Source: a virus. Taken from it: a DNA stretch of 64,000 bases. A program made the translations under genes and the position numbers. This document shows positions 11,329 to 12,999 of the stretch, piece after piece; the first letter of the stretch is position 1, and every line of letters begins with the position of its first letter. Location of the stretch: positions 1 to 64,000 of IMG/VR virus record IMGVR_UViG_3300026519_000008; one strand, given 5' to 3'. The notes under the pieces were generated by a model. The model saw nothing but the letters and a program-made list of their open reading frames with translations. It was not told the origin of the DNA and did no database searches.

Positions 11329-11384
11329 GTTTTTCAGGAGAAAACAACCCCCTGGGCGGGGCGGCGTCGTCTGGGATTTTTGAG

Positions 11385-11474
11385 TTATCCACAGGGGCAT
11401 GGGTGTCAGTGTGGATAACCTGTGGATAAAGTTATCCACAGGCACCGGTGTCATTGTTGATAACCTGGGGATAA
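11385..11474. promoter_or_regulatory. DnaA-box cluster 1
   Basis: TTATCCACA/TGTGGATAA at 11385, 11410, 11421, 11432; one-mismatch boxes at 11455, 11466. Confidence 0.85.
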
Positions 11475-11535
11475 CCCGGCCTGGGGCCCGGCCGTGGGTA
11501 GGAGAAAGTATGGCCATGGTAAACAAACCATGGCC

Positions 11536-11579
11536 AAAAAAAAGTAGGGCAGGGTACCCTGAAAAGGGCCCTGCCCTAC
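11536..11579 (-). terminator. Rho-independent terminator
   Basis: GTAGGGCAGGG...CCCTGCCCTAC stem followed by T8 on minus strand, just after the 11607 stop. Confidence 0.8.
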
Positions 11580-11606
11580 CTGGGGAGGAAAGGGAATCCC
11601 GTGGAA

Positions 11607-12191
11607 TTAAGCCTTCACCGCCACCTTGGCCTTGGCCTTGGCCTTGGCCGTGGTGTCCAGGGCCTTGGGAGCCTCAAGGTGCCTGAGCACCTTGAGGCCG
11701 TCCTTGTGCCTGGGAGCCCACACCCGAAGGCAAGCCTCAAGGGCCTTGTCCGCCCGGGACAAAGCCCCCTTTGAGGGCCCGGATTCCAGGGCCCCCAGGA
11801 GGGCCGCAAGGGCCTTGTGGAAGGCCTTGAGGTCCGATTCCAGGGCCGGGTCCGCCCCCTGGAAGGGAGCCTCCCGGTTGAACCGGGCCAGCCCGCCCTT
11901 TCCGTTCCGGCCCTGGAGCCTGGCCAGGGCCGGAGCCGGGACCTTCCCGACCTTCAGCCCCTCCCGCAACCGGTACAAGGGCCGTACAAAATCCCACCCA
12001 AGGCCCCGTGTCCAGTAAAGATCCCGGGGGCCCTGGGGCCCGGTATAGGTGCCACCAGACCGTGAAGGGTTGGGCAAGGTCAAGGCCTCCCCAACCGCCC
12101 GATCCAGGGCCGTAGGGGTGTCCGTGGTGGCCGCCGCCTTGGCCTTGGCCGTGTCCTTACCCGTACCCGCCTTTGTGATAGCCTTTTTCAT
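11607..12191 (-). CDS. Basic Lys/Ala-rich hypothetical protein (paralogue of 21369-21890)
   Basis: RBS, own terminator, homology to 21369-21890 product. Confidence 0.75.
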   Translation of the reverse strand: MKKAITKAGTGKDTAKAKAAATTDTPTALDRAVGEALTLPNPSRSGGTYTGPQGPRDLYWTRGLGWDFVRPLYRLREGLKVGKVPAPALARLQGRNGKGGLARFNREAPFQGADPALESDLKAFHKALAALLGALESGPSKGALSRADKALEACLRVWAPRHKDGLKVLRHLEAPKALDTTAKAKAKAKVAVKA

Positions 12192-12471
12192 GGTCCTATC
12201 CCCTTTCCTGGGCCCTTGGGCCCGTAGGGGATTCCCTTTCCCGCCCCCTTAACCTATCCCCGGCCGCCCCGTGAGGTGGGGCCCGCCCTTGTTGGCCAGG
12301 GCCCGGACCGCCGCCCCCGGTCCGGTATGTCAAAGATCATAATAGGACCGTACCAGACCGTTCCGGCCCGTGCAAGGGTTTCCGGCCGTTTTTTTGAAAT
12401 CAATTTCAGGGCCCGACCTATCCAGTAACCACCAAAGTTTAGTCAGACCAAACCCGCAAAAGGCCCGGAAG

Positions 12472-12560
12472 TTATCCACAGGGCATCCCGCCGCCTGTGG
12501 ATAACCTGTGGATAAGGTTATCAACAAGTTATCCACAGTGACATCCGTGCCTGTGGATAA
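12472..12560. promoter_or_regulatory. DnaA-box cluster 2
   Basis: Perfect boxes at 12472, 12496, 12507, 12529, 12552; one-mismatch box at 12518. Confidence 0.85.
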
Positions 12561-12999
12561 GTCCAGCCGGACGCGCTGGGCGTCGCGTGCCTCGTCGGCG
12601 TCGTCTGAGTCGTCGGCGTTCTTACGTCGTCGCGTGGGGAAAGACTGACTGGCGTCTGCGTGGGGAAAGACGAGGCACGAGTCTTTGTGTGTTAAAGACG
12701 AGCTTGCGAGTCTTCGTTGCTTGACGGACTAACGTGTACGTCGTCTCCCTCCCGCCGCTGAGCTTACTTCGTCGGTTCCTCCCGCTGCTGCTTCTGAAAT
12801 TGATTTCAGGTCGGCGTCGTCTCCACTGCTTGCGTTCTAACACGTCGTCGTTCTGTTTGCTCCCACGATCTAGGACGTCGTCGTTCTTCTTCGCCCCCGC
12901 CTTTTGATATAAAGCGGTCGCGTGGGGAAAGACGAGGCACGAGTCTTTGATTTTGAAAGACGAGGCCCCCGAAGGGGCCCCTATTCGATGCAATTCACC

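Follow-up and report, generated by a model that had tools for sequence, protein, structure and literature searches.

The + strand of the phage genome studied here carries no [AGT]C[GT] trinucleotide (DCK) over a 1.2-kb block bounded by two clusters of DnaA boxes, and this void is the product of selection at the nucleotide level, not of composition. Direct counting places it at 11371-12570 of the window (the whole 64,000-nt stretch of viral DNA that was analysed), where no DCK starts on the + strand, which equals an absence of [AC]G[ACT] (MGH) from the - strand. From a TCT at 11370 to an ACG at 12571, the words ACG, GCG, TCG, ACT, GCT and TCT are each found zero times on the + strand, as had been claimed in the original prediction. 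The resulting DCK-free gap is 1201 nt long, and the next-longest in all 92,373 nt of the genome is 88 nt. The opposite strand of the block has not been purged, with 74 [AC]G[ACT] read on + (AGC 13, AGT 13 and CGT 19), so the asymmetry that had been predicted is real. The edges, also predicted to be abrupt, are sharp, with five DCK packed into 17 nt on the left side and eight into 30 nt on the right.

Genome-wide, DCK occurs on + at 7.8 per 100 nt and makes up 9% of all trinucleotides, a rate at which 93.1 sites would be expected in the block, where 0 are observed. When the block's own sequence is modelled as a first-order Markov chain, 52.9 +/- 7.0 sites are expected, with a minimum of 31 in 3000 simulations; the figure of about 100 sites given earlier is thus accurate at the genome rate (93) and too high for the block's own composition (about 53). 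The deficit is present in each portion, with 0 DCK against 30.2 expected in the open reading frame (ORF) alone, 0 against 16.5 (minimum 5) in the right non-coding portion, and 0 against 6.2 in the left non-coding portion. The remaining 58 trinucleotides all occur in the block, the lowest count being 4, so that the missing set is exactly the product of D, C and K; an additional 4-mer or gapped-pair rule was sought in the block and none was found. When 2,736 IUPAC trinucleotide patterns were scanned on both strands of 125 sequences (a set comprising the studied genome, T7, 121 viral DnaA-double-box loci and 8 bacterial oriC-like loci), the DCK void ranked first (93 expected sites) and was followed by its own sub-patterns, with unrelated voids scoring at most 38 and extending over at most 510 nt.

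Selection on one strand

The block contains an orphan ORF of 194 codons (11607-12191, - strand), the product of which has a helical core and Lys/Ala-rich tails, with a helical structure predicted at low confidence (pLDDT 58). Its frame is intact and coding periodicity is kept, with GC at codon positions 1/2/3 of 0.67/0.54/0.82, and it uses solely CGG and AGG for Arg and solely TCN for Ser. Synonymous reshuffling of this ORF gave 29.2 +/- 3.5 DCK, with a minimum of 15 in 10,000 shuffles, as opposed to the 0 observed. The codon choice depends on context: the third base of codons preceding a G[ACT]N codon is G or T in 60/60 cases (G 56, T 4), and at these positions Ala is GCG in 7/7, Pro is CCG in 3/3 and Thr is ACG in 4/4, whereas elsewhere in the ORF Ala, Pro and Thr are mostly GCC, CCC and ACC. 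Adjacent genes with equal GC3 (about 0.8) carry 5-8 DCK per 100 nt. Where the two inverted DnaA-box arms fail to match, exact complementarity would have created ACT or ACG on +. The shuffling, the context-dependent codons and the arm mismatches uphold both the earlier statement that codon bias is not the cause and the idea of a nucleotide-level rule barred from one strand. An explanation through codons or tRNAs, suggested by the fact that the six words correspond to Arg and Ser codons, was rejected, as the words are missing from every frame and also from 613 nt of non-coding DNA.

Because the other strand carries 74 sites, a reader that binds duplex DNA without direction is excluded, and because the purge is limited to one strand, the reader has to recognise single strands or else move along the DNA in one direction. 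The same 74 sites set the void apart from restriction-type avoidance, which would extend over both strands and the whole genome. An Argonaute guide bias (5'-C) was also considered as the selective agent. Overall, the void points to an enzyme or rule, not previously described, that reads one strand at a candidate origin.

Relatives of the block or of the ORF are absent from all collections searched. Among 5.8 billion clustered proteins and 1.84 billion representatives, the ORF product has no homologue, the matches being of low complexity only, and it matches no family in Pfam or PHROG, nor did the ESM Atlas offer a neighbour of use; the protein itself is present letter-identical in the ESM Atlas. 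The DNA of the block had no match in the phage collection, a codon-degenerate pattern of the ORF found nothing among metagenome contigs, and a phage-specific 17-mer gave single chance matches only, which lacked the phage's other motifs. No Rfam family or tRNA gene was found.

Architecture of the block and its flanks

The left DnaA-box cluster (11382-11476) has perfect TTATCCACA/TGTGGATAA boxes at 11385(+), 11410(-), 11421(-) and 11432(+) and a variant box, TGTTGATAA, at 11455, while the right cluster (12468-12563) has boxes at 12472(+), 12496(-), 12507(-), 12529(+) and 12552(-) and a variant, TTATCAACA, at 12518. These two clusters are the arms of one inverted repeat of about 85 nt. Two one-off variants accompany ten perfect 9-mers, and 10/11 of the genome's perfect boxes fall within these two clusters of about 90 nt, with a single other box in 92 kb; such clustering is far above chance level, as expected of a DnaA-dependent origin. 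The void reaches 12 nt beyond the first box and 10 nt beyond the last, and takes in the gene, its terminators, its upstream region and both box clusters, as had been described. As single-stranded DNA, the left cluster is predicted by folding to form hairpins with boxes in their stems (z = -3.9) and the right cluster to form box-containing hairpins (z = -5.8 and -6.4), and the full + strand is predicted to close as a panhandle via the two arms.

Immediately after the stop codon of the ORF lies a tandem pair of terminator hairpins (11511-11580, - strand; z = -7.0), the first of which is followed by a run of eight T and constitutes an intrinsic terminator; the void continues for about 160 nt past these hairpins. 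The GC-rich region upstream of the ORF (12192-12467, - strand) includes one copy of a phage-wide 14-bp palindrome (12395-12408). On the - strand, no sigma-70-like promoter was found between 12150 and 13000, even at 8/12 matches. Three sigma-70-like promoters do occur on the - strand at 11138-11337, outside the void, where they fire leftward and away from the block; two of them are within a 45-bp tandem repeat (11243-11331), and the third is TTGACA-18-TGnTATGCT. With all three promoters to the left of the void and none on the - strand at 12150-13000, the suggestion that this is a first-expressed gene has no basis.

Directly adjoining the right edge of the void is the DCK-densest patch of the genome (12571-12950, + strand), which is non-coding and reaches 25 DCK per 100 nt as opposed to the genome mean of 7.8, so that the lowest and highest genomic densities meet at 12570/12571. 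This patch is rich in CGTCGTC and has repeated GGCGTCGTCT and ACGTCGTCGTTCT and two copies of an oriented 15-mer, and DCK is elevated on both strands at 12530-12726. At the left edge, a short GC-rich piece (11347-11372, + strand) ends in GGCGTCGTCT and forms a weak hairpin (z = 0.57). This 10-mer recurs at 12597 and 12813, and since it stands on both sides of the block, a CGTCG-rich sequence appears to have been split by the block. An insertion with target-site duplication was unconvincing, the shared GGCGTCGTCT lying 27 nt from the right edge.

Elsewhere in the genome, a Toprim DNA primase of the DnaG/T7 gp4 type is encoded at 51296-52333 (- strand; PF13155; phrog_47, 2e-32; phrog_239) and a DnaB-like replicative helicase at 54063-55370 (- strand; phrog_19, 2e-55), the nearest relative of the helicase being 42% identical. 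The contig is a metagenome assembly with an estimated completeness of 79%. Among the approximately 97 ORFs covered, a Pfam scan revealed no phage RNA polymerase and no DpdA/TGT, thymidylate-synthase-like hydroxymethylase or DNA methyltransferase. Candidate modification genes are a GT-B glycosyltransferase (beside a ParB-like nuclease and terminase), a PAPS-reductase-like protein (nearest relative 52% identical) and a dNMP kinase, and anti-defence genes include ArdA and an STIV_B116/AcrIII-1-like protein, with a UDG-superfamily gene also present. The genome strongly shuns 6-bp palindromes (ATCGAT 1 vs 21 expected, GAGCTC 0 vs 16, GTCGAC 0 vs 13), and those containing DCK among the most avoided are ATCGAT, GAGCTC, CGTACG, GTCGAC, TTCGAA and CTCGAG.

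Candidate readers of the purged strand

One possible explanation, which we put forward tentatively, is that the block is a DnaA-dependent origin cassette, the + strand of which has been purged of start sites for the phage's own DnaG/T7-type primase (template 5'-DCK-3'). From the arrangement of its parts we infer the origin function of the cassette, the primase as its reader, and the direction and purpose of the exclusion. The order of DnaA-box cluster, small gene and DnaA-box cluster would be the layout of bipartite bacterial origins, and selection would have stripped the + strand of all start sites of a trinucleotide-specific, single-strand-reading enzyme, of which the phage's own primase is the likeliest candidate and the DnaB-like helicase the expected partner. 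Primases initiate opposite a central pyrimidine and require a 'cryptic' 3' neighbour, and a template 5'-D-C-K-3' would give a primer beginning pppG-H. After opening of the origin, the helicase, moving 5'-to-3' on the + strand, would traverse the entire cassette without priming, and the first priming would take place in the neighbouring dense patch (12571-12950). Leftward synthesis, co-directional with all genes, would then begin beyond the cassette and run through it without a break.

The avoided signal is of the primase type, being a trinucleotide with a central pyrimidine on one template strand in a genome that encodes a primase of the cognate type. Known primase words are GTC in T7, GTT/GCT in T4 and CTG in E. 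coli. Those of the Aquifex aeolicus primase are C-centred, namely CCC, GCC and CGC (PMC2532735). In exploratory, post hoc comparisons, the longest gap in full primase sites (KKGTC) on the T7 + strand, 967 nt, spans the primary origin, its counterpart on the T7 - strand, of 1183 nt, stops some 180 nt away from that origin, and the longest + strand CTG gap in the 2.5 kb of lambda examined spans ori-lambda; these gaps are individually not significant, and local composition may account for them.

Several observations weigh against this explanation. There is no clear selective reason why one internal primer should cost so much that some 50-90 sites were purged, and the flank, in which DCK is elevated on both strands, consists of repeated CGTCG motifs that may be no more than protein-binding sites. 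The cumulative GC skew is monotonic and has no turn at the block. AT-rich 45-bp tandem repeats (11243-11331) adjoin the left cluster but read as promoters; no AT-rich unwinding element was identified at the block, and no DnaA-trio array in the stretches read. No comparable void was found at the 121 viral DnaA-double-box loci or the 8 bacterial oriC-like loci, so the void is not a general property of origins. A broader version, which may also be entertained with caution, is that the cassette functions via the single-stranded form of one specific strand that has been purged of start, mark or cut sites. The enzyme could then be a primase, a single-stranded-DNA base modifier or a nuclease, and the purge would leave 1.2 kb unprimed and intact, with the inverted DnaA-box arms re-forming duplex boxes as a panhandle and synthesis being forced into the adjoining site-dense zone.

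It is conceivable, although doubtful, that the void instead avoids a host or competitor enzyme that modifies or cuts single-stranded DNA at the C of DCK on + or the G of MGH on -, such as a DarT-type ADP-ribosyltransferase, a cytosine deaminase of single-stranded DNA or a nickase. For this the cassette would have to be single-stranded for long, whether in an opened origin, in an R-loop or in a displaced strand that has folded as a panhandle, and purging would affect the strand whose copying or integrity matters. Both the nucleotide-level selection and the strand specificity fit such an enzyme, as do the box-bearing hairpins predicted for both clusters, the panhandle predicted for the + strand, and the phage's ArdA, STIV_B116/AcrIII-1-like and UDG-superfamily genes; DarT toxins are also active at oriC in mycobacteria. 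These toxins recognise short motifs in single-stranded DNA only, the motif of Thermus aquaticus DarT2 being TNTC, and E. coli DarT1 also modifies G inside GG with no consensus motif (PMC11543638). The avoided word differs from known DarT motifs (TNTC, TTTW), and a DCK or MGH specificity matches no known enzyme; TNTC is not shunned, since TATC occurs eight times in the block, within DnaA boxes, and E. coli DarT1 is a poor fit with its modification of GG and lack of a consensus. A long single-stranded state of 1.2 kb is moreover a supposition, and the DCK-dense flank is left unexplained.

The model originally proposed, in which the phage marks the C of DCK (or the G of MGH) but spares the template strand of the cassette so that host enzymes can use it, is unlikely. 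Known phage base modifications do not, to our knowledge, block host RNA polymerase. The purged strand is indeed the template strand of the ORF, the glycosyltransferase, PAPS-reductase-like and dNMP kinase genes are candidates for modification, and context-specific phage marks with motifs of 2-3 nt do exist, as in DpdA-dependent deazaguanine at GA or GGC (PMC7544227, PMC10484667). Against this stand the lack of DpdA/TGT, hydroxymethylase and DNA methyltransferase families among the approximately 97 ORFs scanned and the fact that every other gene has DCK on the same template strand; as no phage RNA polymerase was found, a mark that blocks the host polymerase would silence all those genes. The ORF also has no recognisable host promoter, the void extends about 160 nt past the terminators, and DCK-containing 6-bp palindromes are avoided, which would be unexpected if their cytosines were protected by a mark. 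A bulky modification stalling host RNA polymerase is thus unsupported, and there is no need to suppose that host-factor sites are kept modification-free, as the DnaA boxes have no DCK in either orientation.

A constraint on RNA is very unlikely. On this account, a - sense transcript devoid of AGH and CGH would resist an endoribonuclease, much as ACA-less mRNAs resist MazF, and would go on being expressed during the breakdown of other RNAs. In its favour, no strand-specific process is commoner than transcription, the void includes both the ORF and its leader, a long transcript would, by analogy with the + strand fold, have its ends paired by the two arms, and the AcrIII-1-like gene implies a host with collateral RNases. 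However, the two strong hairpins and T8 stop the mRNA near 11535, whereas the void, which in a toxin-site-free mRNA would be confined to the transcript, runs on through the left DnaA cluster to 11371. The right edge has no promoter, the left-edge hairpin lacks significance (z = 0.57), the ten perfect DnaA boxes act as signals in DNA, no MGH-specific RNase is known, and Rfam has no matching family. That the block has no function, being foreign DNA of odd composition, the footprint of one-strand deamination, or an assembly or base-calling artefact, is extremely unlikely, even though its GC content (62-72%) exceeds that of most of the phage, its ORF is an orphan and the assembly is metagenomic and incomplete. 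Had deamination acted, T should be in excess on + and codons before G[ACT]N should end in T, as opposed to the 229 T and 226 A counted on +, the lack of any excess of DTK words, and third positions that are G in 56 cases and T in 4; C-to-U or A-to-I hypermutation was rejected on these base counts and third-position usage. DCK counts are normal in neighbouring genes with a matching composition, and the phage's own 14-bp palindrome inside the block shows that it is not a chimeric insert. The intact frame and periodicity, a synonymous codon choice that is beyond any artefact, and the identical protein sequence in the ESM Atlas likewise argue against an error.

Comparison with known systems and implications

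No described system explains the void. The primases of T7 (gp4), T4 (gp61), E. coli (DnaG) and Aquifex aeolicus (DnaG) resemble the proposed reader in their three-base signal on one template strand, in which a central pyrimidine has a neighbour that is degenerate or 'cryptic', and in acting at origins and forks, and the phage encodes one; none is known to use D-C-K, however, and the link to DCK is inferred here. We know of no description of an origin from which primase sites have been removed on one strand. Bacillus subtilis incAB-dnaA-incC and Helicobacter pylori oriC1-dnaA-oriC2 likewise have two DnaA-box clusters flanking one gene of about 1 kb, but the phage gene is an orphan and not dnaA, the phage clusters are mutually inverted repeats, and no trinucleotide void is present at any of the bacterial oriC-like loci examined. 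In plasmid R6K, the 'A site' is a DnaA-box hairpin on a single strand that assembles a DnaA-DnaB-DnaC primosome. It shares with the phage cassette DnaA boxes in inverted repeats and a single strand that re-forms duplex boxes, which in the phage is a prediction only and would involve a 1-kb loop between the arms, a very different scale.

Restriction-site avoidance and Type III strand bias are similar in that a short word is removed by selection, in the Type III case from one strand, as in T7, where EcoP15I sites are all in one orientation; both are, however, genome-wide and directed at specific words of 4-6 bp, as opposed to a local, complete, 1.2-kb loss of a degenerate 3-mer. ACA-less (MazF) and GCU-free (MqsR) mRNAs have also lost a 3-nt word from one strand in every reading frame, but the phage void exceeds the transcript into DnaA-binding DNA on both sides, and its word is sixfold degenerate. 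The DNA marks of DpdA and DarT have contexts of 2-4 nt, with DarT acting on single strands only, but no matching enzyme gene or motif was found in the phage, and the block shows no avoidance of GA or TNTC.

The complete loss of 6 of 64 trinucleotides from one strand of a 1.2-kb functional unit is a very strong signal, achieved through context-dependent codons and an asymmetry imposed on an inverted repeat. Such a loss implies that the action of some enzyme is not tolerated there, one that reads single strands or works directionally and recognises a sequence of very low complexity. If this enzyme is a single-stranded-DNA modifier or cutter, the void would disclose a new specificity in defence or counter-defence. 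Should the primase be responsible, no earlier origin would have been shown to set its start zone through the exclusion of start sites, and primase specificity would be readable from sequence alone. The prediction is sharp and can be tested by oligonucleotide assays and synonymous recoding. Should the + strand prove to be a 'no-start' strand, the cassette would represent an undescribed way to program the start of replication and would reveal a D-C-K-specific enzyme.

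Absence of DCK from one strand

By direct count, the trinucleotides ACG, GCG, TCG, ACT, GCT and TCT (collectively DCK, where D is A, G or T and K is G or T; MGH on the − strand) number zero on the + strand from a TCT at 11370 to an ACG at 12571, giving a DCK-free gap of 1201 nt where the runner-up in the whole genome measures 88 nt. The opposite strand of this block (11371-12570) holds 74 copies of the same word set, and the strand-specific absence claimed in the original prediction is thus borne out. The roughly 100 sites expected there are matched at the genome-wide rate (93) but not when a first-order Markov model is fitted to the block, which yields 52.9 +/- 7.0; the poorest of 3000 simulations still produced 31, so that none equalled the void by chance. 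Each of the remaining 58 trinucleotides is present and the missing set is exactly D x C x K; a lone C is followed by A in 36 of 36 cases, with G or T allowed only after the last C of a run, and a search of 4-mers and gapped pairs in the block found no extra rule. When 2,736 degenerate trinucleotide patterns were scanned on both strands of 125 sequences, the void ranked first, with DCK as its best description, and unrelated matches had at most 38 expected sites and spans of up to about 500 nt. The void aside (where ACG is missing for 1684 nt), the genome's longest single-word gaps are those of GGT, which is missing from the + strand for 1631 nt (45756-47387) and 1282 nt (42414-43696) at a mean spacing of about 106 nt.

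The block contains an orphan gene of 194 aa (11607-12191, − strand), whose coding periodicity is clear (GC 0.67/0.54/0.82 at codon positions 1/2/3). When its synonymous codons were reshuffled among positions with its own codon usage retained, 29.2 +/- 3.5 forbidden words appeared (lowest 15 in 10,000 trials), which upholds the earlier view that codon bias is not the cause. The third base preceding G[ACT] codons is G in 56 cases, T in 4 and never A or C, and is mostly C before all other codons; Ala is GCG in 7 of 7 cases ahead of G[ACT] codons and GCC (19), GCT (8) or GCG (1) in other contexts, Pro and Thr show the same context-dependent choice, Arg is encoded by CGG and AGG only and Ser by TCN only. 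GC-richness is not the cause of the void either, since five neighbouring genes (13.0-15.1 kb) with an equally GC-rich codon style carry 5.2-7.7 DCK per 100 nt. A run of small genes at 11607-12191, 13000-13314, 13383-13697 and 14067-14399, probably continuing to 15089, has a GC3 of about 0.8-0.85, as opposed to 0.4-0.5 in most other genes; this compositionally distinct run (11600-15100) is possibly a host-like gene set. A deamination footprint was considered and excluded, as neither T nor DTK is overrepresented and G rather than T occupies the constrained third positions. It is also very unlikely that the void is a by-product or artefact, as the block holds the phage's own 14-bp palindrome, the reading frame is intact and an identical protein, letter for letter, is present in the ESM Atlas. 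The one-strand exclusion of DCK over this origin-like cassette is real, statistically overwhelming and selectively maintained.

The DnaA-box cassette and its flanks

The block is bounded on both sides by clusters of consensus DnaA boxes (left, 11382-11476; right, 12468-12563), which hold 10 of the genome's 11 perfect 9-mers (TTATCCACA/TGTGGATAA), five per cluster, and two one-off variants; the void extends past the outermost boxes, by 12 nt at the first and 10 nt at the last. The clusters are mutual inverted repeats of about 85 nt, 84-85% complementary, and their mismatches fall where perfect complementarity would give one arm an ACT or ACG on its + strand, which indicates that the rule acts on a single physical strand throughout both arms, regardless of local orientation. 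As single-stranded DNA, each cluster is predicted to form hairpins whose stems contain the boxes (z = -3.5 to -6.4), and the whole + strand of the block a panhandle closed by the two arms. Between the clusters, from right to left, lie a GC-rich leader of 276 nt in which the phage palindrome occurs once, the 194-aa gene, and two strong hairpins with T8 after the first (z = -7.0), beyond which the void runs about 160 nt further, through the left cluster; it therefore covers gene, terminator, upstream region and both clusters, as had been described. The gene product is without family or homologue in the collections searched, and is modelled with low confidence as helical with Lys/Ala-rich tails.

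No sigma-70-like promoter for the gene was found in 12150-13000, even at relaxed stringency. Three such predicted promoters lie to the left of the void, outside it, and fire leftward, away from the block, among them one in each copy of a 45-bp tandem duplication (11243-11331) and a strong TTGACA-18-TGnTATGCT promoter (11138-11167) just outside the void. Four consecutive small ORFs at 9676-11147 (− strand) have similar arginine-rich tails (...RRRKLRIGGG, ...NRKRRIRYE, ...RRRKLRL and ...RKRRLRVV). Nowhere in the genome is DCK denser than in the right flank, which reaches 25 sites per 100 nt where the genome averages 7.8 and comprises 420 nt of non-coding sequence rich in CGTCGTC repeats; the left edge has a short stretch of similar sequence, GGCGTCGTCT.

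The 14-bp near-palindrome TGAAATCAATTTCA has 31 copies genome-wide (16 and 15 in the two orientations) spaced roughly 3 kb apart, often at gene starts or ends (e.g. 5629, 12395, 12795, 41923 and 59762), and one copy is inside the void. The 15-mer TCGCGTGGGGAAAGA has 10 copies, all on the + strand, and its reverse complement none (window 12630, 12918, 16161, 22713, 25563, 37203, 37255, 55974 and 62071; genome 90310); two are within the dense flank, and its 3' 13 nt (CTTTCCCCACGCG) recur in the 25 nt preceding the portal start, ending 12 nt before the ATG.

The phage and its genes

The genome is a single IMG/VR contig of 92,373 nt (estimated 79% complete), of which the window is the first 64 kb, with nearly all genes on the − strand and uniform GC skew. 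Its nearest known relatives are distant, being 90-100-kb siphoviruses of Rhodobacter, Rhizobium and Pseudomonas with portal and helicase about 28-30% identical, and no close kin of the phage, nor any of the 194-aa gene, was found in any collection searched. Genes for replication and nucleotide metabolism include a family A DNA polymerase, a DnaB-like helicase (54063-55370, −), a Toprim primase (51296-52333, −), further helicases, a RecA-like protein, ThyX, a dNMP kinase and a UDG-superfamily protein; RNA ligase, ArdA and an AcrIII-1-like protein are also encoded, and an AAA+ ATPase (41934-44852, −) is split by an intein bearing a homing-endonuclease domain of the LAGLIDADG type. A PAPS-reductase-like protein (5987-6784), a ParB-like nuclease (36261-37193) and a GT-B glycosyltransferase (37230-38720), all on the − strand, are candidates for DNA-modification functions, the nuclease and glycosyltransferase lying next to each other and to the packaging genes. 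RNA polymerase, DpdA/TGT, hydroxymethylase and DNA methyltransferase families were absent among the genes scanned.

What may read the strand

As one strand is purged while the other holds many copies, a simple duplex-word binding protein is excluded, and whatever reads the word must either work on single strands, of DNA or RNA, or move along in one direction. The void coincides with the DnaA-box-bounded unit, overruns the mRNA end and has no promoter at its right edge, all of which suits a DNA-level process linked to the origin-like cassette better than one that acts on transcripts. Among known systems, the layout of the cassette is like that of a bipartite DnaA origin, and the void's words are similar in form to primase sites. 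Restriction avoidance affects both strands and the whole genome, as opposed to one strand locally; Type III strand bias likewise extends genome-wide, for words of 5-6 nt; toxin-site-free mRNAs lose their avoidance at the transcript end; and known context-specific DNA marks have motifs other than DCK. No comparable void was seen at 129 other DnaA-box loci examined, and the earlier statement that there is no described equivalent held in this system-by-system comparison; to our knowledge the void has no described counterpart. Many 6-bp palindromes are strongly avoided genome-wide (observed vs expected: ATCGAT 1 vs 21, GGATCC 1 vs 20, GAGCTC 0 vs 16, GATATC 5 vs 25, CTGCAG 2 vs 19, CGTACG 0 vs 14, GTCGAC 0 vs 13) and 4-bp palindromes are near expectation, which resembles the classical evasion of Type II restriction.

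The original prediction offered, as one model, a bulky phage modification that stalls host RNA polymerase or a strand-tracking motor, with the template strand of a first-expressed gene and host-factor sites kept free of it. This is the weaker of the DNA-level options and improbable, since the gene has no recognisable host promoter, all other genes have DCK on the same template strand although no phage polymerase that could transcribe them was found, known modification enzymes are missing from the encoded families, and palindromes containing DCK (ATCGAT, GAGCTC, CGTACG, GTCGAC) are strongly avoided. A nuclease-resistant transcript has a lower probability again, as terminators lie inside the void and its DnaA sites are DNA signals. 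A less improbable option than these, though still unlikely, is that the strand avoids an enzyme acting on single-stranded DNA by modification or cleavage (DarT-like, a deaminase or a nickase); DarT-like enzymes can act at origins too. In favour of this option, they read short motifs, and on single-stranded DNA only (PMC11543638), but known specificities do not fit DCK: the Thermus aquaticus DarT2 motif TNTC is in every DnaA box and so is not avoided, and DarT1 modifies G within GG as well. The remaining probability goes to some reader of another kind.

The best-supported guess, and a tentative one, is that primase start sites have been removed from the + strand. The word recognised by primases is a template-strand trinucleotide with a central pyrimidine whose 3' neighbour is left uncopied. 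For Aquifex DnaG, C-centred recognition sets have been documented (PMC2532735). Counting against primase-site exclusion, zero tolerance of sites has no compelling reason, the dense flank is partly elevated on both strands, and the cassette shows no independent sign of origin activity. In phage T7 (L136, 4487-6126), the longest stretch of the + strand free of the full primase recognition site, KKGTC, is 967 nt and spans the primary origin, and that of the − strand is 1183 nt and ends about 180 nt from it (placement probability about 0.04 for each; post hoc). In phage lambda (L137, 38930-39173), the longest one-strand CTG gap spans ori-lambda (2.5 kb examined; post hoc). These gaps, individually not significant, weakly point the same way as primase-site exclusion. 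Were start sites indeed excluded, template 5'-D-C-K-3' would give primers starting pppG-H, and a helicase-primase moving 5'-to-3' on the + strand would find no site within the cassette. Priming would not be possible before the dense zone from 12571 onward, from where the leftward strand, running in the direction of all the genes, would copy the cassette as one piece.
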